Shown here in pieces: positions 8,261 to 41,977 of a stretch of DNA of 59,842 nt (its first letter is position 1; each line of letters starts with the position of its first letter). The DNA comes from a virus (lineage: Duplodnaviria > Caudoviricetes). The stretch is taken from IMG/VR virus record IMGVR_UViG_3300022924_000019, positions 1 through 59,842 of that record. The stretch is one strand, 5' to 3'. Both the position numbers and the translations under genes were made by a program. The notes under the pieces are model-generated. The model made no database searches, was not told the origin of the DNA, and saw only the letters and a program-made list of their open reading frames with translations.

Positions 8261-9186
8261 CTGACGGACCCCAAGAGCTGAAGGGCACGTTCCGCAAGTA
8301 CCGGGATCACAACTTCCGGCCCGAAACGCGACTCCTGATCGGGCAGATCAATAGCCTGATCTCGGAGTACGACGACATGGGTATGAAGATGAGCGTTCGC
8401 CAGATCTTCTATCAGCTCGTCGGCATCGACCAGATCGACAACGACGACCGTGAGTATGAGCGGATCAGCAAGACGATCTCAAACGCCCGCATGGCCGGGC
8501 TGATCTCGTGGGACGCCATTGAGGACCGCAATCGGAACCTCGCCGGCCTGCGGACGTGGCGCCACCCCAAGGACGCCTTGGAAGAAGCCCATACCAACTA
8601 CCGCCTGAACTGGTGGGAGAACCAACACTACTTCCCGGAAGTCTGGGTCGAGAAGGCCGCTCAAGAGGGCACGGTCGGACAAATCTGCGACGAGCTTCAG
8701 GTCAACTTCCTGGCCCTGCGCGGGTACAACAGCCAGTCCGAGCAATGGGCGGCGGCGCAGCGGTTCCGTCGTGCGATCAACCGCGGGCAGACCCCCATCG
8801 TCTTCCACCTGGGCGACCACGACTACTCGGGCATGGACATGACGCGCGACAACCGTGACCGACTCGAGATCTTCTGCGGCACCCCGATCATCGTTCAGCG
8901 GCTCGCCCTGAACATGAACCAGATCGAGGAGTTCAACCCGCCGCCTAATATGGGAAAGTCGAAGGACTCCCGGAAGGAAGACTACTTCAAGAAGTTCAAG
9001 ACCTACTCAACCTGGGAACTGGACGCGCTGAAGCCCACGATCATCAAAGACCTGATCAAGGACGCCATCATGCGCATCCGGGATGAGGACAAGTGGGATG
9101 AAACTCTCGCTCGGGAGGTCTGCGACAAGCGCGAGATCGCCGAGCTTCTGGAACAGTACGGGACCGACGACCATGAAAACGCATGA
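8257..9186 (+). CDS. Topoisomerase VI-A/Spo11-like (Mini-A-like) WHD-TOPRIM protein
   Basis: SVRQIFYQLV (putative catalytic Tyr), EVWVEK, LGDHDYSG (DxD), RLALN, WELDAL. Confidence 0.7.
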   Translation: MTDGPQELKGTFRKYRDHNFRPETRLLIGQINSLISEYDDMGMKMSVRQIFYQLVGIDQIDNDDREYERISKTISNARMAGLISWDAIEDRNRNLAGLRTWRHPKDALEEAHTNYRLNWWENQHYFPEVWVEKAAQEGTVGQICDELQVNFLALRGYNSQSEQWAAAQRFRRAINRGQTPIVFHLGDHDYSGMDMTRDNRDRLEIFCGTPIIVQRLALNMNQIEEFNPPPNMGKSKDSRKEDYFKKFKTYSTWELDALKPTIIKDLIKDAIMRIRDEDKWDETLAREVCDKREIAELLEQYGTDDHENA

Positions 9187-9463
9187 AGACTACATGACGA
9201 CGACCGAGATCTTCGCCAACATGGACCCGGAGGCGGATGATGACCGACGCTATCTCGCGGTCGTCTGCCTGAACCTGACGCAGACGCTCCTCTACCGGGG
9301 TTATGCGGACAGCCCGGAGGCGGCGGTTCGGAAGGCGGAAGCGAGACGCGATGAAGTCTTCGAGAAGTACTCGCGCCAAGACCGGCGGGACAAACCCAAC
9401 CATCCGATGAGCCGACTGGCCGAGGCGCTGGAACGGCTCGAAGCCCTAGTGGGGGTCGCATGA
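9173..9463 (+). CDS. Hypothetical protein with C-terminal amphipathic helix
   Basis: Operon position; ends HPMSRLAEALERLEALVGVA. Confidence 0.65.
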   Translation: MKTHEDYMTTTEIFANMDPEADDDRRYLAVVCLNLTQTLLYRGYADSPEAAVRKAEARRDEVFEKYSRQDRRDKPNHPMSRLAEALERLEALVGVA

Positions 9464-9738
9464 TGGGCCTGAACGTTTACGAGGCGGCAGTTGAGCCGGA
9501 GCGCCCTGCGCTCCGGTTTCTCTGTGTCTACCGGGTCGGCGCGCTAGAGCGGCAGGCCTATGGTGAGACTTCCGAAATCGCGCAAACCCGCGCTATCGAA
9601 GACATGGCGTTCTGGCAGACCGATCCGCTCGGCAGGCTCTTCGGCGCCCTTGACCGACTCGATCTCTACGTTCGAGGCCATCCGCTATCCCGTCTTTCTC
9701 GCGCCCTGGCGAGCCTCGAACAGCATCTAGGAGAATAA
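9460..9738 (+). CDS. Hypothetical protein with two tandem amphipathic helices
   Basis: ATGA coupling; DPLGRLFGALDRL and HPLSRLSRALASL. Confidence 0.6.
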   Translation: MMGLNVYEAAVEPERPALRFLCVYRVGALERQAYGETSEIAQTRAIEDMAFWQTDPLGRLFGALDRLDLYVRGHPLSRLSRALASLEQHLGE

Positions 9739-9740
9739 CC

Positions 9741-9980
9741 GTGGATATCGAAATTCCCGAAGGATCGGCCCGTCTGATCGCAGCGATCATGCGGAAGCTC
9801 GGCGAGACCCGAATCACGATCACGAAAGAGGACATGATCGACCCCGGCCCCTGCAAGATCACGGTCTGGGGCGAGCCGACCGGACAGATCACAGTTCAGC
9901 TCGGAGCCCTCGTAGACCCCGACCAGGGCGATCTCCCCCTGGCCGATTGCGCCTCGCCGCCCTGGCCCAGCGCGAAATAA
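9741..9980 (+). CDS. Hypothetical protein
   Basis: AGGAG RBS; GTG start. Confidence 0.65.
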   Translation: MDIEIPEGSARLIAAIMRKLGETRITITKEDMIDPGPCKITVWGEPTGQITVQLGALVDPDQGDLPLADCASPPWPSAK

Positions 9981-10033
9981 TTTCCGAAAATCGTTCCGCC
10001 TCGGTTGACACCGCAATTCAGTGCGCTCAATGT
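9973..10033 (+). promoter_or_regulatory. Promoter for the gapR/parB-like operon with upstream palindrome
   Basis: CGAAATAATTTCC at 9973-9985; TTGACA(10005)-17-CAATGT. Confidence 0.65.
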
Positions 10034-10061
10034 GCGGACAACGAAAGCGGGAAACCAACAG

Positions 10062-10376
10062 ATGCCCTACCCGGACAACGTCCCCGACGACACCTTCAAG
10101 GTCGACGAAGACGCCATGGCCCAGGCGGCCCTCAAGCTGGCGTCCACCGACGCCCAGGGCCAGCTTAAGAGCTTCTTCGAGCGCATCGAAAACCTCGAAG
10201 AAGCCAAAGCGGCGATCATGGCGGACCTCAAGGAAGTCTACGCCGAAGCCAAGGGCGCCGGGTTCCTCCCCAAGATCATCCGCAAGGTCGTCCGTCTGCG
10301 CAAGATGGACAAGGCCAAGCGCGAGGAAGAAGAAAGCCTCGTCGATATCTACGCTCACGCGCTCGGCGATCTCTAG
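10062..10376 (+). CDS. gapR: GapR-family (DUF2312) nucleoid-associated protein
   Basis: AQGQLKSFFERIENLE..KEVYAEAKGAGF..KIIRKVVRLRKMD..REEEE..DIY closely matches Caulobacter GapR as I recall it. Confidence 0.92.
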   Translation: MPYPDNVPDDTFKVDEDAMAQAALKLASTDAQGQLKSFFERIENLEEAKAAIMADLKEVYAEAKGAGFLPKIIRKVVRLRKMDKAKREEEESLVDIYAHALGDL

Positions 10377-10378
10377 CC

Positions 10379-10618
10379 GTGCGGGGAGACGAGGACTACG
10401 AAGCCGGAATCCCTGACGACGACTTCGACGCGGACGACTTTGTCGATGATCTGGATATCTCGGCTCGCCGCCGCAACTCCGCCAAATGGCTCGCCGAACA
10501 AGAAGCCAAACAGGCGAAATACTCGAACTATCGTGCCGCTTGGCGCAAAGAAGTTACTTTGAGACAGTTCCCCTACCTCCGAGGCGACTCGGACCAACCC
10601 AAAAGGACGAAAGACTGA
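10379..10618 (+). CDS. Hypothetical protein, acidic N-half and basic C-half
   Basis: Fills the gap between gapR and the parB-like gene. Confidence 0.55.
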   Translation: MRGDEDYEAGIPDDDFDADDFVDDLDISARRRNSAKWLAEQEAKQAKYSNYRAAWRKEVTLRQFPYLRGDSDQPKRTKD

Positions 10619-10619
10619 C

Positions 10620-11789
10620 ATGAGCAAGACCAACATTCCCGCCGACACCTTCGATACCGAGCTGCTGACCGCCGGCAACGTGCGCAACGCCCTGAAGGGC
10701 GCCGAGGCGACGAAGACCGACTCCTACATGGTCGCCCCCTCCAAGCTGCGCGAGATCCCCGGCTTCAACGTCCGTGTCGAGACCCCGGACTACCTGACCC
10801 ACGTCGCCGGCACCAAGGAGTCGATCAAGGCCAACGGCTTCGACCCGACCAAGCCGATCTCGGGCTTCGTCGGCAAGGACGGCGACGAAGACGTCATCTA
10901 CGTCACGGACGGCTACACCCGCCGCCGGGCCGTGCTGGAAGCGATTTCCGAAGGCTTCGAGATCGCCGCCGTCCCCGTGACCCTGCAACCGGCCGGCACG
11001 TCCGTCGAAGACCTGATGGTCGGCCTCGTGACCGCCAACTCCGGCCGCCCGCTGTCGGTCTACGAGAAGGCCATCGTCGCTAAGCGTCTGCAAGGCTATG
11101 GCTGGGAACCCCAGAAGATCGCCGACAAGCTGACGATCACCACCCGCTACCTCGACGACCTGATGGTTCTGATCGCCGCGCCGTCCAAGGTCCGCAACGC
11201 CGTGATCAAGGGCCAGATCAGCCCGGCCGAAGCCGTCAAGGCGCTCCGCAAGGACGGCGCCAAGGCCGCCGACGTGGTCGAAGGCGCGGTGAAGGAAGCC
11301 GCCGCCCGCGGCAAGACGAAGGCCACGCCCAAGGACGTGAAGGCCGCCAAGAAGAAGGGCGCCGGCAAGGACGTCCCGGCCGGTGAAACGAAGGCCGAAG
11401 GCTTCGGCAAGCGCAAGTCCGGCGTGGCGTGGTCGGCGACGACCAGGGGCGGCATGGTCCATCAGACCGGGACCTACTTCTTCAAGCAGGGCGACGTCCT
11501 GCCCATCGACGATATCCGGCCCGTCCGCCTGTTCCACGACGGCGACTGGTGGAACTTCGTCGATCCGGCGACCAAGGAACACGTCCTGATCGAAGACTCC
11601 ATCGAGATCGAAGTCACGATCCGCATGGTCGCCCCGGCCGAAGAAGCCGCGAAGGACCCGGCGAAGACCGAGGGCGAGGACGACACCTTCGCCCTGCCGG
11701 GCTCCCAGAAGCCCCAGGACGGGCAGGAAGGGCAGGAAGGGACCGATGAAGCCCCCGCCCCCGAAACGCCCGCCGACGACGAACTGTAG
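10620..11789 (+). CDS. ParB-like protein (ParB N-terminal domain plus HTH)
   Basis: FNVR..ESIKANG..YVTDGYTRRRA arginine patch; N..RPLS..EKA; QKIADKLTITTRYL HTH. Confidence 0.82.
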   Translation: MSKTNIPADTFDTELLTAGNVRNALKGAEATKTDSYMVAPSKLREIPGFNVRVETPDYLTHVAGTKESIKANGFDPTKPISGFVGKDGDEDVIYVTDGYTRRRAVLEAISEGFEIAAVPVTLQPAGTSVEDLMVGLVTANSGRPLSVYEKAIVAKRLQGYGWEPQKIADKLTITTRYLDDLMVLIAAPSKVRNAVIKGQISPAEAVKALRKDGAKAADVVEGAVKEAAARGKTKATPKDVKAAKKKGAGKDVPAGETKAEGFGKRKSGVAWSATTRGGMVHQTGTYFFKQGDVLPIDDIRPVRLFHDGDWWNFVDPATKEHVLIEDSIEIEVTIRMVAPAEEAAKDPAKTEGEDDTFALPGSQKPQDGQEGQEGTDEAPAPETPADDEL

Positions 11790-11797
11790 CGGTCCTA

Positions 11798-11823
11798 GAG
11801 GCCCCTGGGCAACCGGGGGCCTC
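11798..11823 (+). terminator. Stem-loop after the parB-like gene
   Basis: GAGGCCCCTGG-GCAA-CCGGGGGCCTC; no clear U-tract. Confidence 0.5.
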
Positions 11824-11850
11824 AACCGTTCGTGCTAGGAAGTGATTTCC

Positions 11851-12093
11851 ATGGCCCATCCCAGTCTCAAGGAAGCTCTCGAAGACTTCGGCGCTCTCGT
11901 AGATGACTATGAGGGCAGACAGGCGGAGAGGAGAGCCAGGGCGATCCGGGCGGGCGACAACTCCTGCCAGTCCTACCAAGCGTCCTCCGAGATGGTCTGT
12001 ATCCCCTGCGGCCTCCGGTACGACGTGAACGACCCGGACCCACCGGTCTGCCGACGAACAGGACTGCCGGCCCGCTCCTCGGGTCGTCGATAG
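11851..12093 (+). CDS. Small Cys-rich protein
   Basis: C-x10-CIPC-x13-C; its RBS overlaps the palindrome at 11838-11850. Confidence 0.65.
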   Translation: MAHPSLKEALEDFGALVDDYEGRQAERRARAIRAGDNSCQSYQASSEMVCIPCGLRYDVNDPDPPVCRRTGLPARSSGRR

Positions 12094-12094
12094 C

Positions 12095-12132
12095 AGAAGG
12101 CCCGCCGGAGCGATCCAGCGGGCCTTCTCTTT
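12095..12132. terminator. Terminator between convergent arms
   Basis: AGAAGGCCCGCCGG...CCAGCGGGCCTTCT followed by CTTT. Confidence 0.75.
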
Positions 12133-12157
12133 GGTCTGTTAAGATCCGGGCGACCGG

Positions 12158-12418
12158 TCAGGTGGTGAAGCGGATCAGCTCGACGACGAGCGTGGCATTG
12201 CCGCCCGGCCCTTGGGTCTGCCCGTGAACGTAGCTGTCGAAGTGGCCGGAGGACTTGACCGAGACGATGCTGTTCTCGTTGTCGGGGAGCGCGTCGATCA
12301 GGGCGTGCAGCGAGGCCAGGACGCCATCCGGGAAGGTCTTGTACTTCGTCTGGGTCTCGCCCAGGTGTTCCTTGGCCGCCGCTTTCGACCGGGCCTTGAA
12401 TTCGTAGTTCCAGCTCAT
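12158..12418 (-). CDS. Hypothetical protein downstream of the endolysin
   Basis: AAGGA RBS; strong codon bias. Confidence 0.7.
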   Translation of the reverse strand: MSWNYEFKARSKAAAKEHLGETQTKYKTFPDGVLASLHALIDALPDNENSIVSVKSSGHFDSYVHGQTQGPGGNATLVVELIRFTT

Positions 12419-12471
12419 CGTCTTTTCCTTTCGGGTTGAGGTCGGAGGAAGCGCCCCGACCGGAGAAATCG

Positions 12472-13173
12472 TCAGCCGTAGTAGCCGGCGCCCAGGCCCT
12501 TCGTCAGCTTGGCTTGCACCTTGCCGTAGGCTTCGCGCTTGGTCACCTTGCCGTTGGCGTCGGTGTCGAGCCCCTTGTTTTGAAGGTAACGCTTCGGGTA
12601 GCGCGCGTCATTCTTGTCGAACAGAACGAAGTCGTCCGACTTGCCGACGCCCAGGGGCCAGAGGATCGCCATGTAGATATCGCCCAGGGTCTTCAGCTTG
12701 CCCTTGTAGGGGCGGAAGTACTTGTAGACGAAGTTGAGCTGGTCTTCCGCCGTCATGCGGGCCAGGGCTTCGGTCGTGGTCCCCAGAGACCGGGCCGTGG
12801 ACGGCATGAACTGGATCAGGCCCGTGGCGCCCGAGCCCGCGGCGTTCTTGATATCCGGCTTGAAGGTCTCGCCCGACTCCCAGGCGATGCAGCTCATCAG
12901 GTCGTCCGGGTCGAGATCGAGATCCTGGCCGATCCAGAGAACCCGTTCCTTGAACAGCGGGGAGACCTTGGCCCCCCAAGCCATCTGCGGCTTGACCGAG
13001 GTCGAGCCTGGGGCTGGCGGAACGAAGCTGACCTCCGAATAGACCTTCGCCGCCGACAGCAGCTTGTCAAAGGCGTCGTCGCTGAGCGGCCCCCAGACGC
13101 CGTCGATATCGCCGTCGTAGAAGCCCGCCTGGGCGAGCTTCCCCTGAATGTACTTCTCGACCTCTTGGGCCAT
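12472..13173 (-). CDS. Endolysin (peptidoglycan-binding domain plus lytic transglycosylase-like domain)
   Basis: IQGKLAQAGFYDGDIDGVWG; WESG; ATGLIQFMP. Confidence 0.88.
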   Translation of the reverse strand: MAQEVEKYIQGKLAQAGFYDGDIDGVWGPLSDDAFDKLLSAAKVYSEVSFVPPAPGSTSVKPQMAWGAKVSPLFKERVLWIGQDLDLDPDDLMSCIAWESGETFKPDIKNAAGSGATGLIQFMPSTARSLGTTTEALARMTAEDQLNFVYKYFRPYKGKLKTLGDIYMAILWPLGVGKSDDFVLFDKNDARYPKRYLQNKGLDTDANGKVTKREAYGKVQAKLTKGLGAGYYG

Positions 13174-13646
13174 CAGATCAGTCCTTCTTCACGGGCACGT
13201 CGTTCAAACGCGCTCAGGTAGTCGCCGCTGAACTTGGCGGCCTCGACTTGGTAGGTGGAAAGCTGGTCCTTGATCCGAGCGATCGCGCTCTCGACTTCGT
13301 TCATCGCAATGGCTCGGGCGACGGCCGGATCTTCGGCGGCCGGCGGCTGTCCTCCGCTTGCCACGGCTGCCGCGTTGCGGACCTGTTCGGACTTCGAGCC
13401 GTCGAAGTAGAACTTGATCACGACGCCGACGCCGCTGGTGAACAGCGACCCGATCATGACGTTGAAGAAGTCTCGGTTCGCATCGGGAACCTTGACGAAG
13501 AACAGCAGGATCATCACGGCGCCGACCACGGCCACGAGCATGAGGGCGAGGACGGAATGCGTTTCCGTGAACAGGTCCCAGAAATTGCGTCGCGCCGGGC
13601 CGCTATCTGGCCGGGGTCCACCTTCAACGATATTCTTCTCGGCCAT
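13173..13646 (-). CDS. Putative holin
   Basis: Two TM segments; directly upstream of the endolysin. Confidence 0.6.
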   Translation of the reverse strand: MAEKNIVEGGPRPDSGPARRNFWDLFTETHSVLALMLVAVVGAVMILLFFVKVPDANRDFFNVMIGSLFTSGVGVVIKFYFDGSKSEQVRNAAAVASGGQPPAAEDPAVARAIAMNEVESAIARIKDQLSTYQVEAAKFSGDYLSAFERRAREEGLI

Positions 13647-14188
13647 CAGCCTTGTCCTTCTGCCGCCCACTCGACGACTTTGCCGGGGCCGCTGACGGCC
13701 AGGGTGGCAAGCTGCCGTTGAATGGACGTAATGTCCCGTTTGATCGCGGCCATGTCTTGGTTCTGGCCTTCATGGTGTGCGTCGAACCGGGCGCCCAGGC
13801 GGGCCAGCTCTTCGCGCAGATCTTGTAGGCCCGCCGTGTTGCGGTCGATATGCTCGACCTTGGCCTTCAGTGCTTCGTACTCACCGCGCGCCCTGGTGAA
13901 GAACTGGTCGCTGTCCTCCATCCGGCGCAGCAGGGAGTCGATGATGGTCTGAAGCGTTGTGCGGTGCAGCTCCATCAGCTTGTCTTGGGCCGCCGCGTCG
14001 CGTTCTGACTGTGTCTTCAGCGAGTCGACCTGGGTCTTCATCTTGCCCATGAAGAAAGCGAACATCATCCCTTGAGCGGCGAGCCCTACAAGGAAGATTG
14101 TCACGGTAACGATGACTGGAATCCACGGTGACACGGGCAAACTCCGAGGAACGAAAGCCGATCCATCGTCCGATTCTAAGCTGAACAC
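13646..14188 (-). CDS. Lysis-cassette membrane protein (TM plus coiled coil)
   Basis: N-terminal TM; long heptad-rich C-terminus. Confidence 0.6.
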   Translation of the reverse strand: MFSLESDDGSAFVPRSLPVSPWIPVIVTVTIFLVGLAAQGMMFAFFMGKMKTQVDSLKTQSERDAAAQDKLMELHRTTLQTIIDSLLRRMEDSDQFFTRARGEYEALKAKVEHIDRNTAGLQDLREELARLGARFDAHHEGQNQDMAAIKRDITSIQRQLATLAVSGPGKVVEWAAEGQG

Positions 14189-14220
14189 AAGTTTAGCGAG
14201 TGGAAACTACTTCCGGGTTG

Positions 14221-16617: not shown

Positions 16618-16843
16618 TGGTGTCGGCCTTGCGCTTGATCGTGCGGGCAACGACCTGTTCGGCCAGCCCATCCTTGGTATCAAGCAGCACGCGGGCCGAG
16701 ACACCGTTTCGGAGGAAGTCGTTGAAGTTCAGCTCGGGCTTGCCATGGAACCACCGACGCGCGCCGCTGGGGCAGTGGCCGGCCAGTTGGATATCCCGGA
16801 TCGTGATAATCATCGAGTCGAGGTCTGGATCGTCCGCCATCAC
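16610..16843 (-). CDS. Small tail assembly protein
   Basis: HCPSGARRWF..FLRNGV motif; synteny. Confidence 0.7.
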   Translation of the reverse strand: MMADDPDLDSMIITIRDIQLAGHCPSGARRWFHGKPELNFNDFLRNGVSARVLLDTKDGLAEQVVARTIKRKADTNG

Positions 16844-17061: not shown

Positions 17062-17069
17062 GACCGGCC

Positions 17070-29985: not shown

Positions 29986-30282
29986 CTAGAGGTCGTCGTC
30001 GTCCTTGGGGTCGGGCTTCTTGGCGTCCGCGCCCTTCTTCTTCGGCGCGACGGGCTCCGGGGCATCGCCGATTTCTTCTTCGTCGATCTCGTGGCCCGCG
30101 GCGGCGGCTTCGTCCTGGGTCGGCATCCGGAGCGCCCGGTTCGGCCGGACCTCTTCGATATCGGCGACCTCGGACTTGGTGAAGTTGAACACCTTGCCGA
30201 TGGGCGGCGTGACGCGCTTGAACACGCCCTCATCGTCCTTGCGGCTCAGGTGGATGGTTTCGAGAACAACCCGCTTCGGCAT
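29986..30282 (-). CDS. Small head-associated protein (lambda FI position)
   Basis: AAGGA RBS; follows the capsid gene; ends DDDDL. Confidence 0.7.
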   Translation of the reverse strand: MPKRVVLETIHLSRKDDEGVFKRVTPPIGKVFNFTKSEVADIEEVRPNRALRMPTQDEAAAAGHEIDEEEIGDAPEPVAPKKKGADAKKPDPKDDDDL

Positions 30283-32195: not shown

Positions 32196-32239
32196 AGCGA
32201 AGAAAACCTTTCAGGTTCGAGTTGATCCGAGCGCGCGGC

Positions 32240-32695: not shown

Positions 32696-33628
32696 TTCTT
32701 CGTCCTCATCTCCGTTAGGCTGGTCATCGCCCAGCTCAGCCAGGAAGCTCGCCACCGCATCGGTTGGCGTCTCGACTGCGTCGATCAGCTTGAGTTCCAG
32801 AGCTTCATCAGCCCGGTAGCATCTCGACTCAGTATCTCGAACCGACTCAGTAGTAAGATCGGCCCGATTCTTAACCACAAGTCCGATGAATTCACCATAC
32901 CGCTTCTTCACAGAGGCGCGAATATCGGCAAGCACCTCATCGGAGAGGGCTTCGTAGGGGTTTCCGTCAGTCTTGTGCGGGCCTTCACCGATGAGGGTGA
33001 TCTTCAGGCCCCAGTCTTTGTAGAACTTGCTCATATCGACGTGCATGGCGACTACGCCAATACTTCCCGCCTGCCCGGAGGGCGTGACGACGAGCTTCGT
33101 GCAGGCCGACGCGATGGCATAGGCCGCCGAACAGCAGTTGGAGTCGACCACGGCCAGAAGTGATTTCCGATCTCGGGCCGTCCGGATCTCGTCGGCCAGT
33201 TCGAAGCATCCGGCCGCTTCGCCGCCGAAGCTGTTGACGTCGAAGACGATCAGCTCGACGTCGTCGTCTTCGAGCGCGGCATTGAGCATGGCCCGGATGA
33301 AGTTGTATCCCGTCACGAAACCCCAGCAGCCGAAGAACCGGTTGATGAGCGCGCCGTGAACCGGGATGATCGCCACCCCGTTCGAGAACGCGAAGGGCTT
33401 GTCGTTCACGCGGGAGCCGTAGCCGTAGTGCATGGCGAGCTGATCGAGGCGCCGGCTGAGATGCGCTTCTTCCAGCGTCTCGTCGGTGACCCCGGCCAGT
33501 TGGCGAAGGCTGTTGGCGAACGCATTCTGCTGGCCGCGCATGATCAGCGCGTCCGTCATGTGCATCCGCGACAACGCGGCTACGGCGACTTCCATGCCGA
33601 GACTGTTGGTGACAATGGCGCGGCTCAT
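32240..33628 (-). CDS. Prohead protease, S49 family
   Basis: IIPVHGAL, DVNSFGGE, SAAYAIAS, GSIGVV. Confidence 0.92.
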   Translation of the reverse strand: MSRAIVTNSLGMEVAVAALSRMHMTDALIMRGQQNAFANSLRQLAGVTDETLEEAHLSRRLDQLAMHYGYGSRVNDKPFAFSNGVAIIPVHGALINRFFGCWGFVTGYNFIRAMLNAALEDDDVELIVFDVNSFGGEAAGCFELADEIRTARDRKSLLAVVDSNCCSAAYAIASACTKLVVTPSGQAGSIGVVAMHVDMSKFYKDWGLKITLIGEGPHKTDGNPYEALSDEVLADIRASVKKRYGEFIGLVVKNRADLTTESVRDTESRCYRADEALELKLIDAVETPTDAVASFLAELGDDQPNGDEDEEMTTAATKPGTPEAAAAAPAVDVGAVQKAERDRMSAIMDSEEGKANVPLANYFATKTDMTAEAAIGALKADAAGKATTPAPAAAAPTTPAAAAAPAAVGEGAFSAAMDNSDNPQLGAGLDANGQKLSRAQVAMANAGLGTAKAADTRVKHFH

Positions 33629-35295
33629 AGCTCGTCGTCCTCTTGGTTGTTCTGTCCGTTGTCGTTGTTGGCCTTGGGATCTTCAGCCGCGCCGCCCGAG
33701 CTGGGCTTGTTCGAGCTGAGATCGAAGACCAGTTGCCCGACTTCGCGCGCCTTCCGTTCCCGGACTTGCTGCGCGTAGATATCCCGGAAGTCGTAGCCCA
33801 GGCGCGAGACCTCGATCTCGTAGGTCGAAAGACCCGAGGCGATCCGGAGAATGGCCGCCTGGGTTTCCTTCAGCTCATCGATCTGGCCCTTGCCCGCGCC
33901 GACCCAGGTGGCCTTGCAGAAGGCTTCCTTGGCGAGCGGCAGATAGAAGGCCTGACGGCTCACACCTCGCGGCAGCGGCACGTTGCCGTTGGCAATCTCT
34001 TCCTCAAGCACGAGGCTATAGATGCCGTTGGCGAGCCGGTCGGCCGTGCCCTTCTTCTTCGCCTTCATCGTCTTGTCCGTGCTGGCGAACGCGCCCTTGA
34101 GCCCGGAATAGCTGATGCCCGAGAAGTCCCGCGAAAACTCCTCGAAGGAGATGCCGAGGGCGGCACAGGTGTGCCTCAGAAGTGATTTCCCATAATCGCC
34201 GCCCATGCCGCCGGGCGTGCCGAGGGCTTGGGTCTTCATTGACGTGCCCGGCGGCAGGACGGGGATCTTCACGCCGTCAATGGTGACGTTGTTGGCGGCC
34301 CCGAAGTAGGCCGACAGCATCCCCATGTAGCTGCCCATAGCAGCCGTGAAGTTCTCCGAGCCGGAATTCCCGCCCATGGCCGAATAGACGGCATCGGGCG
34401 GCATCTCGGTTTCGATGGCGGCGGCGTAGCTGGCGTTGATGACCGCTTGCTGAAGGGTCAGCTCATCGAAATGCTTGGTCATCCGCATGTTCTTGAGGAC
34501 CGACACGATATCGGCGATCCCCCGCGACTGACCGGGTTCTTGTTGCTCGTAGATATGAATGATCTGACGACGGCCCCACGGCTTGCGGGCCGGGATATAG
34601 CGCCACTGCCAGCTCTTCACCGAGGCATAGTAGTCCCCCGGATGCGCCTCACGGAACCAGTAGCCTTGCGGCTTGCCCCGTGCATTGATCGCCACGCCGC
34701 GACGAAGAAACTCATCGTCCGCCTGCCCATTCGGGTTGCTCATCCGGGCAGCGGAGACCATCTGAACGGCGGTCTTGAGCGGCCGGCGCGGATCGTCCTT
34801 CAGCCACTCGGCCGCCGCAATGATTTCGCCGCCCAGGACCGCGCCCCCGACGCCCAGGCGGATCAGCTCCGTGAACGTGTTGGTGCCCGAGGCGTCCAGC
34901 CAGCAGTCGTCGGACTCGGCGATCAGGTCAAAGCGGGCCTCGACCATCTCCTGAAACTCGGTCGCCCAGGTTTCGTCGAACGACTTCCCGGTGATGCTCG
35001 CCAGCACCTTCCAGACGGGCTTTGCGTTCAGGCGATAGTGCGCCCCGACGATGCTGTCTTTGTTGATCGTGACGGCGCCGCGGGTGTAGCCGTCGTTGTT
35101 GTTCATATCCCGGCCGCGGGCGTCGGCCATGGACTTGACGCTGTTGACGATGCGGTCGGGTGAACCCATGTGCGGGTTCCACAAAGCCGTCTCGCGGCTC
35201 GTGCGCTCGGCCCCTTCGAGCCCTCCGCCCATGGCTGATTCGGTTACGCCCGGCGTCTCGGCGACCATGATGGGCAGTTGGGGTGCAGCGCGCAT
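33625..35295 (-). CDS. Portal protein, lambda family
   Basis: PWGRRQIIHIYE..GQSRG; SYSG; IDELKE. Confidence 0.92.
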   Translation of the reverse strand: MRAAPQLPIMVAETPGVTESAMGGGLEGAERTSRETALWNPHMGSPDRIVNSVKSMADARGRDMNNNDGYTRGAVTINKDSIVGAHYRLNAKPVWKVLASITGKSFDETWATEFQEMVEARFDLIAESDDCWLDASGTNTFTELIRLGVGGAVLGGEIIAAAEWLKDDPRRPLKTAVQMVSAARMSNPNGQADDEFLRRGVAINARGKPQGYWFREAHPGDYYASVKSWQWRYIPARKPWGRRQIIHIYEQQEPGQSRGIADIVSVLKNMRMTKHFDELTLQQAVINASYAAAIETEMPPDAVYSAMGGNSGSENFTAAMGSYMGMLSAYFGAANNVTIDGVKIPVLPPGTSMKTQALGTPGGMGGDYGKSLLRHTCAALGISFEEFSRDFSGISYSGLKGAFASTDKTMKAKKKGTADRLANGIYSLVLEEEIANGNVPLPRGVSRQAFYLPLAKEAFCKATWVGAGKGQIDELKETQAAILRIASGLSTYEIEVSRLGYDFRDIYAQQVRERKAREVGQLVFDLSSNKPSSGGAAEDPKANNDNGQNNQEDDEL

Positions 35296-35531
35296 CAGAA
35301 CACGAACCCTAGAGGCTTGGAGCCGTATCCGCCGGTCGGCGCGTCCGGAAGTTGGGCCTTCAACGACAAGATGTAGGCGTACAGGGCCGACCTATTGGCT
35401 TGACTATAAACGGTTTTTTCCCCGTTCTGGTCCGTGAACTCCCGAAGAGAGGCCGCCGTCATCAGATCGTGGTAGGCGGTTTCGGCCTCCAAGATTTTCT
35501 TCTTGAGAGCCAGAATTTCGGCGTCGGTCAT
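35295..35531 (-). CDS. Head-to-tail joining protein (gpW-like)
   Basis: AYHDLMT..DQNGEKTVYS.AN..LYAYI. Confidence 0.82.
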   Translation of the reverse strand: MTDAEILALKKKILEAETAYHDLMTAASLREFTDQNGEKTVYSQANRSALYAYILSLKAQLPDAPTGGYGSKPLGFVF

Positions 35532-35544
35532 TGTCAAAGCTCGT

Positions 35545-37671
35545 TCAAGCAAGTGCTTTGCCGAAAGCGGCGAAATCAGCTTCAGTCACCTTGGGTAGAG
35601 CAAACCGGACGTCTTGACTAGCCTCAAAGACAAGTGAGTTCTTGTCCCACGGCGCGCACCAGTTCGGAGCCTTGTTCCAGTCAAGTCCTTCGACCCCGAT
35701 TAGTTGCGAGATGCAGACGCCAATGCAGTAATACATGAGGTCCCACGCTTCGTTGCGTGTATGCGGCGGTCGCTCCCAGCCCTTATCCGTCCGTAGCTCT
35801 ACGCAAAGCTCGGCGTAGAACCAGTCAGGCAGCCATTCGGGGAAACGCACGAGCCCCGCGCCCGGCACCATGCAATCGAGCCTGTTGGACAGCATGTCCT
35901 TGACGGTGTTCGAGTGGATCATCAGAACGGGGACGTCGCCCTGCGCAGCCGCCTTGGTCTTGGTGTTGTTCGAGTCGGGGTGCGTAATCCGGGTGCGGGG
36001 CGCAGTCGGTGTCGAGTCACCTTTTACCAGGGTGAAGCGGCCGGCGAGCCCTTCCTTGCGAAGTTTCCGGTAGTACTCATAGGCGTTCGCCGTCACACCC
36101 GCCTTACCGCCAGAGTCGCAAGCCGTGATCTTGACCATCATCCGTTTCGACGGGTCGCCCTCTAACGGGTAGGTCCGCTTGATCACCTGTTCGGTGATGA
36201 GGTCCCAGTCTTCAAGGTACGTCCCTGGCTTGACCCACTGGATTTGCCCGTCGTCGTCCAGGCGGTCGGCGGACAACCTGATCTGGAACCTATCGACGAT
36301 AGTGATATCGAACGGAGAGCCTGGGCAGATGCCGTGGACCTGAACGATGAAGAGGTTCTGGCCGACGTCCACGGTCGCGGTCAGGAACCGAACTCCTTCA
36401 GGAACACAAGGCTCATCCTTCGTCCCGCCGATAGCCTCGGCCCTGGCTTGCAGAACTTCCGGAAGCCGGAGCGACTCGAGAGCCTTCGGCAGATAAGGCT
36501 CGCCCAGGTCGGTGTTGTAGAACTTGATCAGCGACAGTTCGCTGCCCGTGCGCTCGAAATCCTTCTCTGCTTCGATGTAGATGACGACGAGGTCGATCCA
36601 CGTCACGAACGCCGCGGCAACCCCATTCAGCCAGAAAGAGGCGATCTTCGACCTGATCTCCGGGCCGTAGATGTTGCCTTCTTCGTCGATCTCCTGGCCG
36701 TCCTTGACCCAGCGAGCTTTGCGCAACATCTCCTTGCGGGCCTCGGGCCAGATCTCTTCGTTACACTTGGGGCAAATCATGCGGACAGTCTCGGCCGCCA
36801 GCAGCGGATTGGACTTCTTGTCCCACGTCAGCATCTTGAAGTTGCCTTCGAAATAATTTCCGCAATGCGGACAAGGCCACTTCAGCCGACGCCGGTCCCC
36901 CCGATTGTAGAGGCTCAGAATGCCTTTGCACGGCGGTGCCTCATGAGGGGTCTTCCTGACCCACTTCGGGTCCTTGATCGGCCGTGACGGCGAAGACTCG
37001 GCCACGCACATGCCGAAACTTCGGAACGTGGTGGTGCGCTTAAGGCCCAGATCGAAAGGCTCGCCCTCCCCCTCAATGTCATCGTCCATCCGGTCTCGGT
37101 CGGTCAGTACGACCCGGCCAATGGGGCGACCGGCGAACTCGGCTCGGGACGGCCAGGAGATCGTGAGGATCATGCCGCTCTTGTAGTGCTTGTCGAATTT
37201 GTTGTCGGCTTCCTTCTCCGAGCGCATCATGTCGCCGAGATCGGCGCTGTTGTGGTGCATCCGGTCGATACGGCGAACTGAGAAGTCGCGAGCCGCCGCC
37301 TGAGTCGGCGAATAGACGATCATGTCCATCGGATCGACCTTGATCGAATATGCGATGGTGTTGAGGATGAGGCCCTGGGTCTTGCCCGATTGCGCTGGCC
37401 CAACGAAGATCAGGCCGCTGAAGACCCGCGAATTGAATTCGTTCATCGGCTCGACCATGTAGGGAGCCTGATCGTTCTCGTAGTAGCCGACATGGGCGCC
37501 GGGCTGGTTGATGTAGACGTACTTCTCCGCCGCCTCGGACACCAGCATCCGTTCAGGCGGTTTCAGCAGTTCAGAGAGTCCAACGACGAGCTGGCCGAGC
37601 GACTTAAAGGTCGTCGTCCAAGTCGTCTGATCCGTCGAACTCTGTTGCGATTCCAACTTTCGGAGGGACAT
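35545..37671 (-). CDS. terL: Terminase large subunit (GpA family)
   Basis: GPAQSGKT Walker A; ESSP; CPHC/CPKC; TVDV; RNEAWD; start site uncertain. Confidence 0.93.
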   Translation of the reverse strand: MSLRKLESQQSSTDQTTWTTTFKSLGQLVVGLSELLKPPERMLVSEAAEKYVYINQPGAHVGYYENDQAPYMVEPMNEFNSRVFSGLIFVGPAQSGKTQGLILNTIAYSIKVDPMDMIVYSPTQAAARDFSVRRIDRMHHNSADLGDMMRSEKEADNKFDKHYKSGMILTISWPSRAEFAGRPIGRVVLTDRDRMDDDIEGEGEPFDLGLKRTTTFRSFGMCVAESSPSRPIKDPKWVRKTPHEAPPCKGILSLYNRGDRRRLKWPCPHCGNYFEGNFKMLTWDKKSNPLLAAETVRMICPKCNEEIWPEARKEMLRKARWVKDGQEIDEEGNIYGPEIRSKIASFWLNGVAAAFVTWIDLVVIYIEAEKDFERTGSELSLIKFYNTDLGEPYLPKALESLRLPEVLQARAEAIGGTKDEPCVPEGVRFLTATVDVGQNLFIVQVHGICPGSPFDITIVDRFQIRLSADRLDDDGQIQWVKPGTYLEDWDLITEQVIKRTYPLEGDPSKRMMVKITACDSGGKAGVTANAYEYYRKLRKEGLAGRFTLVKGDSTPTAPRTRITHPDSNNTKTKAAAQGDVPVLMIHSNTVKDMLSNRLDCMVPGAGLVRFPEWLPDWFYAELCVELRTDKGWERPPHTRNEAWDLMYYCIGVCISQLIGVEGLDWNKAPNWCAPWDKNSLVFEASQDVRFALPKVTEADFAAFGKALA

Positions 37672-38308
37672 AGAATGTGTCGTCTTCGTCTGGGGTTTCG
37701 TCGTCGCCCGAACCGGGGGCGACCGACAGGTCATTGCCGAAGGTCTCGACGATCCGCTTGCGCATCGTCTCTAGGGCTTGGTCGATCAGCTTTTGCAGCG
37801 CGTCTCGCTGCGCCACGGACAACGGGGATTCCCGGTCGATGGAATCCGGCATGAGCAACAGGCCCATGCGGACGATCTTGATCACCTCGGACATGGCCTC
37901 GGCGACTTTGTCAGTGCGCCAGAGGTCTCCGTTAGATTCGAGGAACGCCAGCTTGGCACGCCGGCCGTTCCAGTACTCTTTCGAGACCAGGGCGGGCAAG
38001 TCCTGGGGCCGCATCCGTTTGATGTACTCTTCAATGTCGCCCGCGGGCTTCACCAGATACGGCGCGAGGTCTCGAATGTGGAACAGATCTCGGCCGTTCC
38101 TCTGGCCTGAAGGCTTCAGATCAGTCCAGGGGACTTTCGCCAGAATAGTCCGGCGGTCCATCTTGAAGATGATCTCGGCGTCCGCGACCGTAATGCCCCG
38201 GTATAGGGCGTGTTTGGCCTCGGCTTCGGTCATCGCCTCCATCTTGGCGACACCGAACGACCCCGCGGGTCGCCCTGCCTTGTCTTTCTTGACTGATTGA
38301 TTCGTCAT
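37604..38308 (-). CDS. terS: Terminase small subunit
   Basis: N-terminal HTH; LP..SKEYW..GDLWRT; overlaps the terL start. Confidence 0.8.
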   Translation of the reverse strand: MTNQSVKKDKAGRPAGSFGVAKMEAMTEAEAKHALYRGITVADAEIIFKMDRRTILAKVPWTDLKPSGQRNGRDLFHIRDLAPYLVKPAGDIEEYIKRMRPQDLPALVSKEYWNGRRAKLAFLESNGDLWRTDKVAEAMSEVIKIVRMGLLLMPDSIDRESPLSVAQRDALQKLIDQALETMRKRIVETFGNDLSVAPGSGDDETPDEDDTFYVPPKVGIATEFDGSDDLDDDL

Positions 38309-39993
38309 GCCGCTAACCTAAGCTCTTGGAGGCGTCTACGCATAGCCCGGATACGTTTGAACAATGCTTCCTGCGCGTCTTCCTTTACCTTCAGCCGCTC
38401 GACGACGAGACTGTCGTTGGTCCCGCGCATCTGCGGAAGATGGACCCGAACGCGAAGTTTCTGCCCTTGCCGGGCTAGCCGCCGGTAGAGCTGATAGAAC
38501 AGCTCGTAGGACCAACACTGATCGAACATGTAGAGATCGTGTCCTGGCCCGTACTGCATGTTCAGCCCATGGCCGATGCTCGCCGGATGGACCAACAACA
38601 TCGGGATTTTGCCGGTGTTCCACGGGCCGCGCCGGCCAGCCACCTTCCCGGCAGCGTCCATGACCCAGGCATCCGGAAATGCTTTCCGAAGTCGGGCGAG
38701 CGACGACTTGTACCAGTAGGCCACCATCAGCGGCTCACCTTGCAGCTCTTCCCGGAGCTGCCGGAGGTCTTCGATCTTATGCTCGTGGACAACGCGGACT
38801 TGCTTGTCCTTGGTGTAGACAGCGCCGCTTGAGAGCTGAAGGAGCTTACCTGACAGGGCTGCGGCGGTCTCCGCTTCGATCTTCTCGCCATCGTCCAGGG
38901 TCAGGATGAAGTCCCGCTCGAACTTCTGATACTGTTCCAGCTCATGCGGAGCCATATTGATCATGCGGTCGAGGAACAGAGGCGGCGTGTCGTCGAGGTA
39001 GTCTTCCGCCTTCATCACGAGACACAGATCAGCGATGATATCGCCAATCTCTTTGTCCGCGCCGTGCTTCAGTTTGTAGGTGTGTGCATAGGCGTTGTGG
39101 TTGAAGAACTTCTCACGGAAGTGCGTGATGTAGACGCCCAGGCGCTTTCCAAGATCGAGCAAGTAGATCTGCGCGAACAGTCCCATGTAGCCTTCCGCCG
39201 CAGGTGTAGCGGTGAGCTGGTGCAGTCTGTTGATCCCCGCCTGAACCCGGATCGCGGCCATGGCCTTGAAGCGGTCTGTTGAGGCGTCCTTGTAGCTGGA
39301 CGACTCGTCGAGGATCACAACGTTGTAGGGCCAGTCCACGACAACCCGCTTGCGCTTCCTCTTGCCGTTGATCTTGACTTCGCGCATCTCGCTATGCTGA
39401 TCGACGAGCCATTCCAGATGCTCTCGATTGATCAAATGGATCGTAGCCGTACTTCGGCGCCGCTTCTGGCGAAGCTCTTCCTTCATCGCCGTGCGGGCCA
39501 GCCCCGCCGCCTGAGCCGCCCATTTGCTGAGCTGTCGCCTCGCATAAGACCTAGACGCCTGTTCTTCGCCCCCCAGATCGACCAGGGCGGCGATTAGCCC
39601 CTCTACCCTTGCCAGAGCCCCCGGATCGACCTTAAGGGCCTGAGAGGCGTTCCTTCCGGCCGAAATCACTTCTTCATCGTCGTCCTCGGCCCGAATGACC
39701 GAGAAATTGAAGAACGCGGTGTGCTGCCACGCCATGATTTCGTTGGGCCACGTCTGGGCCGCCACGCGAACCGGCGCCACGATGAGCGCCTTCCGCAGCT
39801 TCCCTTTGAGCCAGAGCCGGACCAACAGCGTGAGGATGATGATCGTCTTCCCCAGGCCTGTATCAATGAACAGGGCCGAGAAAGGATTTTTCCAGAGAAA
39901 ATCGACGGCGAAGTTCTGATAGTCGTGCATGTCCTCGGGACCGCGCTCGACAAACTCGAACTTCGCCTTCAGCCGGTCACTTAAGGATGACAC
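38305..39993 (-). CDS. SNF2-family helicase
   Basis: DTGLGKT, DESS, LTATP, GHGLNMQ, RLARQGQ. Confidence 0.92.
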   Translation of the reverse strand: MSSLSDRLKAKFEFVERGPEDMHDYQNFAVDFLWKNPFSALFIDTGLGKTIIILTLLVRLWLKGKLRKALIVAPVRVAAQTWPNEIMAWQHTAFFNFSVIRAEDDDEEVISAGRNASQALKVDPGALARVEGLIAALVDLGGEEQASRSYARRQLSKWAAQAAGLARTAMKEELRQKRRRSTATIHLINREHLEWLVDQHSEMREVKINGKRKRKRVVVDWPYNVVILDESSSYKDASTDRFKAMAAIRVQAGINRLHQLTATPAAEGYMGLFAQIYLLDLGKRLGVYITHFREKFFNHNAYAHTYKLKHGADKEIGDIIADLCLVMKAEDYLDDTPPLFLDRMINMAPHELEQYQKFERDFILTLDDGEKIEAETAAALSGKLLQLSSGAVYTKDKQVRVVHEHKIEDLRQLREELQGEPLMVAYWYKSSLARLRKAFPDAWVMDAAGKVAGRRGPWNTGKIPMLLVHPASIGHGLNMQYGPGHDLYMFDQCWSYELFYQLYRRLARQGQKLRVRVHLPQMRGTNDSLVVERLKVKEDAQEALFKRIRAMRRRLQELRLAA

Positions 39994-40243
39994 GGAACGA
40001 CTCCACGTTGTCTACCCAGTGGACCTCTTGCCCCGCCGCCCGAAGCTCCTCGTGTCGCAAGAGCTGCTGTTCAGTCGGCTCTTCGCCGTCATCTTTCATC
40101 TCGCACCAGAAGGAGTGCCCCGGCTTCATGAACAGACGATCCGGGAAACCCCGGCGACTGGCCTTCATGACCTTGACTTCAGTGTATCCGGCCGCCTTCG
40201 CCAGCTTGACGCAAGGCCTCTCGACGTCCCTGACCTCACCCAT
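39977..40243 (-). CDS. VRR-NUC nuclease
   Basis: GFPDRLF..CEMK..PTEQQ. Confidence 0.88.
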   Translation of the reverse strand: MGEVRDVERPCVKLAKAAGYTEVKVMKASRRGFPDRLFMKPGHSFWCEMKDDGEEPTEQQLLRHEELRAAGQEVHWVDNVESFRVILK

Positions 40244-40916
40244 GGTACGCATCCGCCAATCGGTCGATGGCATCCGTTAGTTTGGCGACCCGAACCATCA
40301 ACGGGACCTGAGAGAGATCCGGGACCAAATCTTCCGGAGGCCGCTCAAGCAAGATATCAGGGAGCGGCGGATCGCCTCGCCGCCAGACCCACCACGAGCA
40401 ATCCATTAGCGGGCTGTCCCCGCGCTCTTCCTTGAGGAACGCGAGGCGCCAAGTCACCGGGTAGACGGCAGTCGGTGTGAACTGCCGCCAGAGCTTCCGG
40501 CGGCTCTTCGTATGCCAGTAGTTCGACTTCAGCAGCAGCGCGGTCAGCGGCGAGAACGCGACGCACCTCTTGATGAAGTCTTCGGCCAGGGCGAAGGGCG
40601 GGTTGGTGATGATAGGGACGCTAGGGAAAGACCGCGTTTGCAGAAAGTCCACATGCGGCGTCCCGTAGCCAGTCCGGCGAATGTCACTGGCGATGACGGG
40701 ATGCCCGAGGGCACGGAAAACCCGTGCAATCTCCCCCGTTCCGCAAGCGGGGTCGCTGACCTCGCACCCCGGCTCTAGTCGAAGGTGAGGATAGAGCGCG
40801 ACCGTCGCTTCCGGCGGCGTCGGATAGAAATCGGACGGCTTGCGTTTGTGCCGCCTCATGCTTTCGACGACGGCGGATGCAACGTTGTGCGCCGGCCAGT
40901 CAGGGTTCCCGCTCAT
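40236..40916 (-). CDS. DNA amino-methyltransferase (N6-adenine/N4-cytosine type)
   Basis: DFYPTP, DPACGTG, ITNPPF. Confidence 0.82.
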   Translation of the reverse strand: MSGNPDWPAHNVASAVVESMRRHKRKPSDFYPTPPEATVALYPHLRLEPGCEVSDPACGTGEIARVFRALGHPVIASDIRRTGYGTPHVDFLQTRSFPSVPIITNPPFALAEDFIKRCVAFSPLTALLLKSNYWHTKSRRKLWRQFTPTAVYPVTWRLAFLKEERGDSPLMDCSWWVWRRGDPPLPDILLERPPEDLVPDLSQVPLMVRVAKLTDAIDRLADAYHG

Positions 40917-41206
40917 TCGCCTTGCTCCGGAAATGATTTCTCGAACGCCGCCGCCAGACGATCAATCGCCTCGCCCAGTTTACAGGGCAGCTCGACGAGG
41001 CCGCAGTTGACCGCGACCTTCATCAGCGCCTCATCGGCCGTCGCTCCAACCTCGCAGTTGAAGTACTTCGGGTCTTGGTCCGACCGGATGGCCGCAAGCC
41101 AACGCCGATCCCCTACATACCAGCGACCTTGAACCTGTCGGTGAAGCCCGGTCAGGCACAAGAGGTCTTCGGCCAGTTTCTCGTTGATCTCGTCGATGCT
41201 AACCAC
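40913..41206 (-). CDS. Hypothetical protein
   Basis: Coupled ORF; C-terminal KLGEAIDRL helix. Confidence 0.6.
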   Translation of the reverse strand: MVSIDEINEKLAEDLLCLTGLHRQVQGRWYVGDRRWLAAIRSDQDPKYFNCEVGATADEALMKVAVNCGLVELPCKLGEAIDRLAAAFEKSFPEQGE

Positions 41207-41684
41207 GGGGCGTTTCCAGTGCGATGCAGAGGCGGTCGATCTGTCGGCCGATGGCCTCTAGGCGGCCCTCAAACGTCTTGGTACGGTCAATACGGTGTCC
41301 CGGAGGCCCTGGGGGCGGCGTCTCGCGGAAAATGCGGTAGAGGCCGCCGTAGAGCTTGCCCTTATCGACCTCGCCGTAAAACGTTCGAGGGAAGGTGGTC
41401 TCCGAATGGTTGCTCAGCCGCGCCATCGCGAACACCTCGCGCACCGTCTGGGCATCGTACCCGTTCCACTTCTGCGAGGTCACCAGATCGAAGAGTTCCT
41501 GGCCGGCCTCCGTCAACCGCAGCGCCCCAGGCCACGTTCGGCCGTCCGTATCGACATTCGGATCGAGCCAGAGCATCCCGTTGTCCGCGAAACGGCCGGC
41601 GCACGGGCGCAAGACCTCGGGCACGACTGGAAACGCCTCAAGGAACTCTCGGGCTCGCGGGTCGATGTAGAGAAGATCGGTCAT
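41199..41684 (-). CDS. Hypothetical protein
   Basis: GGAG RBS; ATGA coupling; C-terminal QIDRL helix. Confidence 0.65.
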   Translation of the reverse strand: MTDLLYIDPRAREFLEAFPVVPEVLRPCAGRFADNGMLWLDPNVDTDGRTWPGALRLTEAGQELFDLVTSQKWNGYDAQTVREVFAMARLSNHSETTFPRTFYGEVDKGKLYGGLYRIFRETPPPGPPGHRIDRTKTFEGRLEAIGRQIDRLCIALETPRG

Positions 41685-41977
41685 TTCTTTTTCCTCCGGA
41701 CAGCCTTGCGCGTCGGGATAGTTGGGTCGTTCACGGACCCGGACAAGGCGCCGCTTTCGATCTTCGCCCAGGTCTCTAGCCGGTCGGTGGCTCGCGCCAG
41801 GGCCTCAAGCGATCCTCTGATCCCGGCCCGCGGGGAAATCCGGTCGCAAGCCGCGACAGCCTTTCCCTCCCAGGTACACCGCGCATGGCAGTACGCGACG
41901 CCGGGGTTGATCTCGCGCCGATCAAGGTGACTGCACTCCCCGCACGTCCTGCCGTCGTCTAGCCGGTATCCCATCAT
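41681..41977 (-). CDS. Cys-rich hypothetical protein
   Basis: TCGECSH..YC..C..ACDR; TGATG coupling to the polymerase gene. Confidence 0.55.
   Translation of the reverse strand: MMGYRLDDGRTCGECSHLDRREINPGVAYCHARCTWEGKAVAACDRISPRAGIRGSLEALARATDRLETWAKIESGALSGSVNDPTIPTRKAVRRKKK

Follow-up and report, generated by a model that had tools for sequence, protein, structure and literature searches.

Why should a DNA methyltransferase and several otherwise dissimilar small proteins of one phage end in much the same short helix? The question is raised by IMG/VR record IMGVR_UViG_3300022924_000019, a whole virus genome of 59,842 bp and 62% GC (referred to here as the window), which is that of a complete siphophage of the Casjensviridae kind. 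The initial annotation of this DNA had proposed that an L-x-x-A-[IL]-D-R-L-type helix serves as a portable coiled-coil docking tag, recruiting diverse cargo, including the methyltransferase, to one hub or hetero-oligomer. Judged by sequence comparison, five or six of the seven instances hold up as real, and an assembly role for the helix (hereafter the tail) appears likely. In the form we favor, held with belief and doubt in balance, the tail would be portable and would assemble by coiled-coil contacts, linking the methyltransferase to small, possibly DNA-binding neighbors.

The C-terminal helix in the window

Proteins are named below by the lower coordinate of their genes. The methyltransferase, 40236 (40236-40916, minus strand), is an N6-adenine DNA methyltransferase of 226 residues with an NPPF motif. 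Its catalytic core (residues 15-186) matches phrog_799 over that range (E 6e-44), and the protein has no target-recognition (DNA-recognition) domain. The tail (residues 205-226, PLMVRVAKLTDAIDRLADAYHG; nucleotides 40239-40304, minus strand) lies outside the match and is preceded by a Pro-rich linker at residues 181-204. As initially described, a similar helix is present on all four genes between the family A DNA polymerase gene (41977-44175) and the VRR-NUC gene (39977-40273), and on both genes 3' of the topoisomerase-like (Top6A-like) gene (8287-9183, phrog_6247). The remaining three of the four, all on the minus strand, encode 40913 (40913-41206), a 97-residue orphan open reading frame (ORFan) product with the tail at residues 74-90 (40937-40987); 41199 (41199-41684), 161 residues long, with a conserved N-terminal domain at residues 3-92, a low-confidence linker and the tail at residues 138-157 (41214-41273); and 41681 (41681-41974), a Zn-ribbon-like protein (CxxC...C...C) of 97 residues, or 108 if started from a GTG at 42007, with the helix at 41759-41821 and a basic C-terminus (RRKKK). 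The database entry that matches 41681 is the 97-residue form. On the plus strand, 9173 (9173-9463) is a small protein of 96 residues with the tail at residues 78-96 (9404-9460), and 9460 (9460-9738), of 92 residues, has two tail-like helices in tandem (9625-9672 and 9682-9735) that likely form a helical hairpin. All seven peptides first quoted were found in the translations of the named open reading frames (ORFs), and the window total is seven tail helices on six proteins.

The strict pattern L-x-x-A-[IL]-D-R-L was observed three times against 0.003 expected from 300 residue shuffles, and a looser pattern five times against 0.10. Because both patterns were picked post hoc, with the data already seen, we added a natural-background control and profiles built without window sequence. 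The natural background, 836 coding-like ORFs with 206,726 residues from 54 related phage loci, contains two loose matches and one strict match, the latter being itself a true tail; with five loose and three strict matches per 18,051 residues, the window has the strict pattern ~30-fold more often than this background. The three window-free profiles were derived from 52 tails of methyltransferase homologues (a), from 30 found in IMG/VR loci (b; alignment A5) and from those of the 41199 family (c). They were used to rank 74 window proteins, a list produced by a crude caller based on GC content at third codon positions (GC3) and corrected by hand (41295-41930 on the plus strand dropped, four genes added).

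With profiles a, b and c, respectively, the methyltransferase ranked 1, 2 and 3; 40913 ranked 2, 1 and 1; 41681 ranked 5, 3 and 2; and 9173 ranked 3, 4 and 4, with an empirical p <=0.003 in all three. These four proteins, at ranks 1-5 of 74 and with p <=0.006 in every profile, are on this evidence firm members of the tail-helix module. Membership of 9460 appears borderline (ranks 13, 6 and 5; p ~0.01 in two profiles); its first helix matches the strict pattern, and its second ranks 6 and 5 with two of the window-free profiles. Protein 41199 ranked 21, 15 and 7. A six-frame search of the window with alignment A5 matched only the methyltransferase tail (E 0.013), the other tailed proteins being ranked when the 74 proteins were searched with that alignment by hmmsearch. 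Against shuffles, natural background and window-free profiles alike, the motif exceeds chance.

A similar helix had also been reported at the start of 46491 (46491-46847, minus strand; helix at 46800-46847). We found that it does not belong with the others: it is N-terminal, which separates it from a C-terminal element, and the protein ranked 11, 22 and 44. It is a phrog_7721 protein whose homologues read L-E-x-K-[IL]-[DE]-T-L at the helix. We rejected 46491 both as a member and as a hub. A 211-residue ORF on the plus strand (41295-41930) overlaps genes 41199 and 41681 on the opposite strand and has a similar GC3; we regard the minus-strand genes as the real ones because the minus-strand product has homologues.

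The window tails end 0-36 residues short of the C-terminus. The description of the helix as terminal is loose for 41681, where 36 residues with the basic end follow. The further claim that the N-terminal parts are unrelated stands for at least four kinds of protein (methyltransferase, Zn ribbon, 41199 domain and small proteins) and is weakened for 9173, 9460 and 40913, in which a G-x-[ST]-x-x-E-A motif immediately precedes the tail; these three may be distantly related (hhalign probability 19-38%). Relatives of these proteins are scarce: 40913 had none in viral_contigs or in the ESM Atlas and only itself in a set of 5.8 billion proteins, 41681 likewise matched only itself in that set, 9460 had no relative in viral_contigs, and 9173 matched no Pfam or PHROG family.

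In pairwise comparison of the seven helices, codons differ at 77 of 113 identical residue pairs, and the tails share 15-28 of 48 nucleotides with one another. As identical tail residues are mostly encoded by different codons, selection acts on the protein; a DNA-level repeat or a recent duplication is ruled out by these codon differences and by the low nucleotide identity. The methyltransferase tail is identical to that of its neighbor 40913 at 9 of 16 positions (six of the nine shared residues having different codons); its 52 orthologous tails share fewer residues with it (at most 8, median 5). An Arg follows the D/E position in six of the seven window helices, compared with 17/50 and 2/30 elsewhere. 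These comparisons hint at a constraint specific to this genome.

The tail in related phages

The tail is ~20 residues long with the consensus [PG]-G-L-x3-[ML]-x2-L-x2-A-h-[DE]-x-L-T-x2-h, and Pro/Gly-rich linkers join it to unrelated N-terminal domains. It is conserved in 52 of 118 methyltransferase homologues. In 54 of the 120 homologues among the matches listed, at least 22 residues extend past the catalytic core, and nearly all of these fit P-L-x-V-x-L-x2-L-x2-A-h-[DE]-x-L; the other 66, which are the more distant ones, have only a few residues there and so lack the tail, a possibility that the initial annotation had singled out for checking. An N-terminal helix, HN.A.A.V.SMK, is common to the tailed methyltransferases and missing from the tail-less ones.

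To place the tail in a wider sample, we used 54 IMG/VR loci anchored on methyltransferase relatives (7128 ORFs). A profile of methyltransferase tails gave 34 matches of >=8.5 bits, against one in the reversed control, and all 34 lie <=45 residues from the C-terminus. In these phages the tail is C-terminal on at least eight unrelated N-terminal families. Grouped with their tails removed, the carriers comprise methyltransferases, two kinds of small protein termed A and B, Nlig-Ia and several singletons; the 41199 family carries the tail as well. A (~105 residues) and B (~125 residues) are adjacent paralogous proteins, and B has the tail, a linker and a D-L-D-D-D-I-P-F end; an A-type protein gave weak structural rows in the ESM Atlas resembling a double-stranded RNA-binding domain (dsRBD), which we treat only as a lead (template modelling score 0.44-0.51). 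When the small window proteins were aligned with the A/B family by hhalign, the probability was 19-38% with the tail and 1-5% without it. The Nlig-Ia carrier is a stand-alone NAD-binding domain (PF22745, E 1e-10) with a tail; solo Nlig-Ia domains have been described in phages, and the passages of that source concerned with them do not mention a tail (PMC9503650). Methyltransferase tails are mostly acidic, B tails carry +2 and A tails are mixed; charge complementarity between tails was considered and found too weak to use.

Scans of four whole genomes of >=98% completeness, made with a profile that included sequences from those same genomes, found 3, 4, 3 and 4 tails, none of them outside the replication module. 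On these comparisons the tail is confined to the replication/DNA-modification module and is conserved and portable in a group of alphaproteobacterial siphophages.

The 41199 family extends this picture. It has 23 homologues, with E values as low as 1e-22, and nearly all terminate in G-L-x3-h-x2-L-x2-A-h-x2-L; the tail column is present throughout the family alignment, and after the tail these homologues carry either a basic end or a [DE]-x-I-P-F tip resembling that of SSB, the protein that binds single-stranded DNA. In 12 of the 23, the best match of the methyltransferase-tail profile is the tail itself, at >=3.6 bits, with a reversed-control peak of 2.7. Searches of viral_contigs and metagenome_contigs with alignments of the family found nothing.

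SSB-like tips (D-D-D-[IV]-P-F or [DE]-x-I-P-F) follow the helix and a linker in many tailed relatives: in loci L018 (12707-13078), L020 (13785-14183), L024 (12967-13374), L045 (2884-3201), L048 (3688-4053) and L104 (11399-11812), and in proteins P0124, P0132, P0133, P0138, P0141, P0143 and P0145. These tip-bearing relatives are small phage proteins other than SSB that bear the docking peptide of the host SSB.

Tailed proteins tend to occur together. Other tailed ORFs were found at 9 of 15 loci with a tailed methyltransferase, as against 6 of 39 without (Fisher p 0.002), and with an iterated profile at 12 of 18 against 4 of 36 (p 5e-5). Gene order also recurs. In L004 the polymerase is followed by a Zn ribbon, a 228-residue protein with a 41199-like stretch, a 65-residue protein, a tailed methyltransferase and VRR-NUC; of the four inserted proteins, all but the first pass the tail profile, and that first one, the Zn-ribbon protein, is tail-like by eye only. 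This cassette is syntenic with the four window genes although the protein bodies have strongly diverged. In L058 a gene combining DUF4326, the 41199 domain and a tail lies directly upstream of the methyltransferase, and P0144 is a 41681-like Zn ribbon (BLASTP 4e-7, N-terminus) fused to a 41199 domain with a single tail, the same two domains being separate genes with one tail each in the window.

The polymerase of the window phage shares ~50% identity with its counterparts in Pseudomonas phage SS2019XI, BcepNazgul, and Erythrobacter and Sphingomonas phages (Casjensviridae). In SS2019XI and BcepNazgul (our comparison loci L001 and L002) the polymerase gene is directly followed by the VRR-NUC and helicase genes, and because the two adjoin there, we regard the four genes at 40236-41974 as an accessory insertion. 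Several further observations concern the setting of the tailed genes. A second, different methyltransferase-like gene stands just after the tailed one in L018 (9727-10440, SLRSSMRYLEFQMEALAAEM) and L104 (8707-9435, GLKAALIRADYEVTSL), also with a tail-like end, which scores 8.0 bits with the A5 profile in L104 and falls below thresholds in L018. Window 7550-8257 encodes a NADAR domain (E 1e-20) fused to DUF4326 (E 4e-17), and P0137 and L058 (9235-10008) each join a DUF4326-like segment to a 41199-type domain; such DUF4326/41199-type fusions, along with the tailed Nlig-Ia protein of L018, tie tailed proteins to NAD/ADP-ribose biology. The phage also encodes a GapR-like DNA-binding protein (10005-10376; PF10073, E 9e-29). 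GapR is an alphaproteobacterial nucleoid protein, and methyltransferase relatives are present in a Mesorhizobium chromosome and an Acetobacteraceae metagenome-assembled genome; together these matches point to an alphaproteobacterial host, with which the nature of GapR is consistent.

Likeness to known assembly and docking elements

The conserved hydrophobic columns of the tail are spaced 4-3-4-3-4, a heptad-like pattern, and its profile matches coiled coils in the PDB at E 0.03-2, the best being the N-domain of H-NS/VicH (1ov9; E 0.03), designed coiled-coil peptides and GCN4. Structure prediction with AlphaFold2 (AF2) confirmed that the tails of the methyltransferase and 41199 are helices. The methyltransferase model (27-row alignment; predicted local distance difference test score, pLDDT, 88) has a Rossmann fold, an ordered Pro-rich linker and a tail helix at residues 206-225 (pLDDT 93-97), and a fold search with it returned generic class I methyltransferases. 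In the 41199 model a confident N-domain and a poorly defined linker precede a helix at residues 138-157 (pLDDT ~90); its fold search gave no significant row, the weak rows all being winged-helix regulators. The H-NS/VicH match pairs QLEEALDKLTTVVQ with r-L-g-e-A-l-d-e-L-T-e-a-l-r. It spans 14 residues at a borderline score, and in H-NS the coiled coil is N-terminal, on a nucleoid protein, so that common descent is unsupported.

The closest functional parallel is offered by type I restriction-modification enzymes. In the PacII M1M2S structure (7VRU), two C-terminal tails of M subunits and the conserved-region coiled coil of the S subunit are described as a four-helix bundle, and deletion of the M-subunit tails as abolishing assembly (PMC9613975). 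Like HsdM, the phage enzyme has a core of the gamma-class N6-adenine methyltransferase type, to which a linker attaches a C-terminal helix; its best PDB profile matches are type I M subunits (7vru_A of PacII, E 4e-4; 2okc_A, StySJI M, E 1.5e-3) and M.TaqI, and a weak collinear stretch places its tail on residues 457-492 of the 499 of 7vru_A. Unlike HsdM, it has 226 residues rather than ~500, and its helix also occurs on many non-methyltransferase proteins. We saw no gene for an S subunit in the window. The methyltransferase gave no Pfam match up to E 1, and PF02384 (N6_Mtase) is matched nowhere in the genome. On 23 alphaproteobacterial M subunits the tail profiles scored <=2.7 bits, a level that reversed controls also reached; the best match fell within the last 70 residues in 4/18, 3/10 and 5/11 M subunits against 13% expected, and in EcoKI HsdM it fell on the C-terminal helix at 0-1 bit. 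Sequence homology of the phage tail to HsdM C-terminal tails was rejected, since the profiles fail on real M subunits, and because of this failure and the lack of a PF02384 match we use the type I likeness as an analogy only.

Other systems resemble the tail by description. Modular polyketide and non-ribosomal peptide synthases have docking domains that, together with dockerin-cohesin systems, are like the tails in being short terminal helices on proteins of consecutive genes; they join separate subunits. In contrast to the phage elements, which are all C-terminal and alike, these systems pair a C-terminal with an N-terminal element, and they belong to unrelated proteins and biology; the comparison is one of description, not of sequence. 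Phage T7 gp2.5 and gp4 have acidic tails, which, like the C-terminal tip of SSB, are short portable elements on different replication proteins and dock on partners. The SSB tip reads D-D-D-I-P-F (PMC5872125). Relatives of the window proteins bear both the helix and an SSB-like tip, and no end of the D-D-D-I-P-F type is found on the six tailed window proteins; the window tail is a 20-residue amphipathic helix rather than a disordered acidic peptide.

A separate feature of the window is that 8 of its 74 proteins end in [DE][DE][LIF], mostly D-D-D-L, against 0.21 expected from shuffles (10620-11789, 29986-30282, 33625-35295, 37604-38308, 44241-44855, 44899-46347, 46491-46847 and 47275-49821). The carriers are a ParB-like protein, phrog_7559, the portal, DUF1441, an Enc34-type SSB, a DUF2800 nuclease, phrog_7721 and a primase-like protein. 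Similar acidic ends occur in related loci. As codons differ among the carriers, the acidic ends constitute a second protein-level terminal tag.

Possible roles of the tail

We read the tail as an assembly helix because the methyltransferase lacks a DNA-recognition domain and because type I M-subunit tails provide a precedent. According to this proposal, the tail would be a short coiled-coil element through which the methyltransferase bundles with the tails of its small neighbors, in analogy to type I M-subunit tails anchored on the S-subunit coiled coil. The partners would be the Zn-ribbon protein with its basic end, the 41199-type domain, which may be of winged-helix type, and small alpha/beta proteins. 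These partners could supply DNA binding, targeting or regulation; in relatives, the SSB-like D-D-D-I-P-F tip may tie the assembly to the replisome or to SSB-binding proteins. Of the docking tag originally put forward, a portable, protein-level, coiled-coil-like C-terminal helix that co-occurs on differing domains, the methyltransferase included, has held up, and the inclusion of the 46491 helix has not.

Several findings weigh against this proposal. The tail profiles miss real M-subunit tails, as described above. The co-occurrence counts are not independent, since the loci share ancestry and several are closely related. The tails of L018, L020 and L024 follow those of their orthologues rather than those of their genome-mates, which argues against general within-genome co-evolution. 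The tailed genes at 9173-9738 sit 30 kb from the methyltransferase, and by its own sequence the 41199 tail scores weakly, as does that of 9460 to a lesser extent. Finally, the single-chain pLDDT of the methyltransferase tail and linker and of the 41199 tail is above what a free tag would be expected to give, and the tail may therefore pack on its own domain. A complex prediction for the methyltransferase with 40913 gave a score of 0.00 with an uncertain fold for 40913, and speaks neither for nor against binding.

An extended form of the assembly proposal, which we consider a long shot, is a new kind of methyltransferase holoenzyme: a minimal M subunit, a helix bundle, interchangeable Zn-ribbon, winged-helix-like, dsRBD-like or Nlig-Ia subunits, and an SSB-like tip tethering the whole to the fork. 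New phage DNA would then be methylated while being made. Bolder still, the tail might plug the phage enzyme, or decoy partners, into the S-subunit coiled coil of a host type I system, in which case host specificity would be borrowed or the host restriction complex poisoned.

Alternatively, each tail could dock singly in one common groove on a further protein of the phage or the host, for instance part of the replisome. The conservation of the polar positions in A-h-D-x-L-T across unrelated families, the restriction of tails to the replication module and the uniform Arg after D/E in this genome would all suit such a shared hub, as would the abundance of other terminal tags: 8 of the 74 window proteins have acidic D-D-[DE]-L ends, and relatives have D-D-D-I-P-F tips. 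We nevertheless think it unlikely, as no hub candidate was identified: 46491, the only one suggested initially, is also present in loci with a tail-less methyltransferase, and the fusion and splitting of the Zn-ribbon and 41199 domains, together with the tandem helices of 9460, fit tail-to-tail pairing better.

It is also conceivable, and in our view quite unlikely, that the tail of each protein serves only its own dimerization or tetramerization, the tails being alike because they share descent from a shuffled helix module. Homo-oligomeric coiled coils are indeed the closest solved matches, and the weak, non-significant fold rows of 41199 are winged-helix regulators, which dimerize via terminal helices. 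Separate self-association nevertheless leaves unexplained why tails co-occur in the same genome, why their features are kept across at least eight families and why the methyltransferase tail is so close to that of its neighbor.

Packing of each tail against the domain that bears it, whether to cap it, to autoinhibit the protein or to form part of a DNA-binding surface, with no contact between proteins, would account for the high single-chain pLDDT of tail and linker and for the N-terminal helix that accompanies the tail in methyltransferases. It is hard to see how own-surface packing could produce the same pattern on a Rossmann methyltransferase, a Zn ribbon and Nlig-Ia, and we rate it very unlikely. 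That the tails are generic amphipathic helices of an Ala/Leu/Arg/Asp-rich proteome, or a DNA repeat read as protein, is scarcely credible, for while the 62% GC of the genome, the choice of the pattern with the data in view and the weak scores of 41199, 9460 and 46491 all favor it, it is contradicted for five or six of the seven instances, and stands for 46491 only, given the shuffle, natural-background and window-free profile tests, the C-terminal position of all 34 matches, the conservation of the tail in homologues, and the synonymous codon differences and low nucleotide identity between tails.

Short portable docking elements are already known, among them SSB tails, clamp-binding motifs and type I M-subunit tails. 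Our literature search on the topic returned no description of a conserved helix that an orphan methyltransferase has in common with at least seven further families of small phage proteins. If the tail is an assembly tag, it would provide a handle on ORFans without database annotation, such as 40913, 9173, 9460 and the A/B pairs. It would also explain how a methyltransferase without a DNA-recognition domain could be targeted, and would predict a multi-subunit complex. The tail profile is usable as a tool to search for accessory DNA-modification cassettes in alphaproteobacterial phages.

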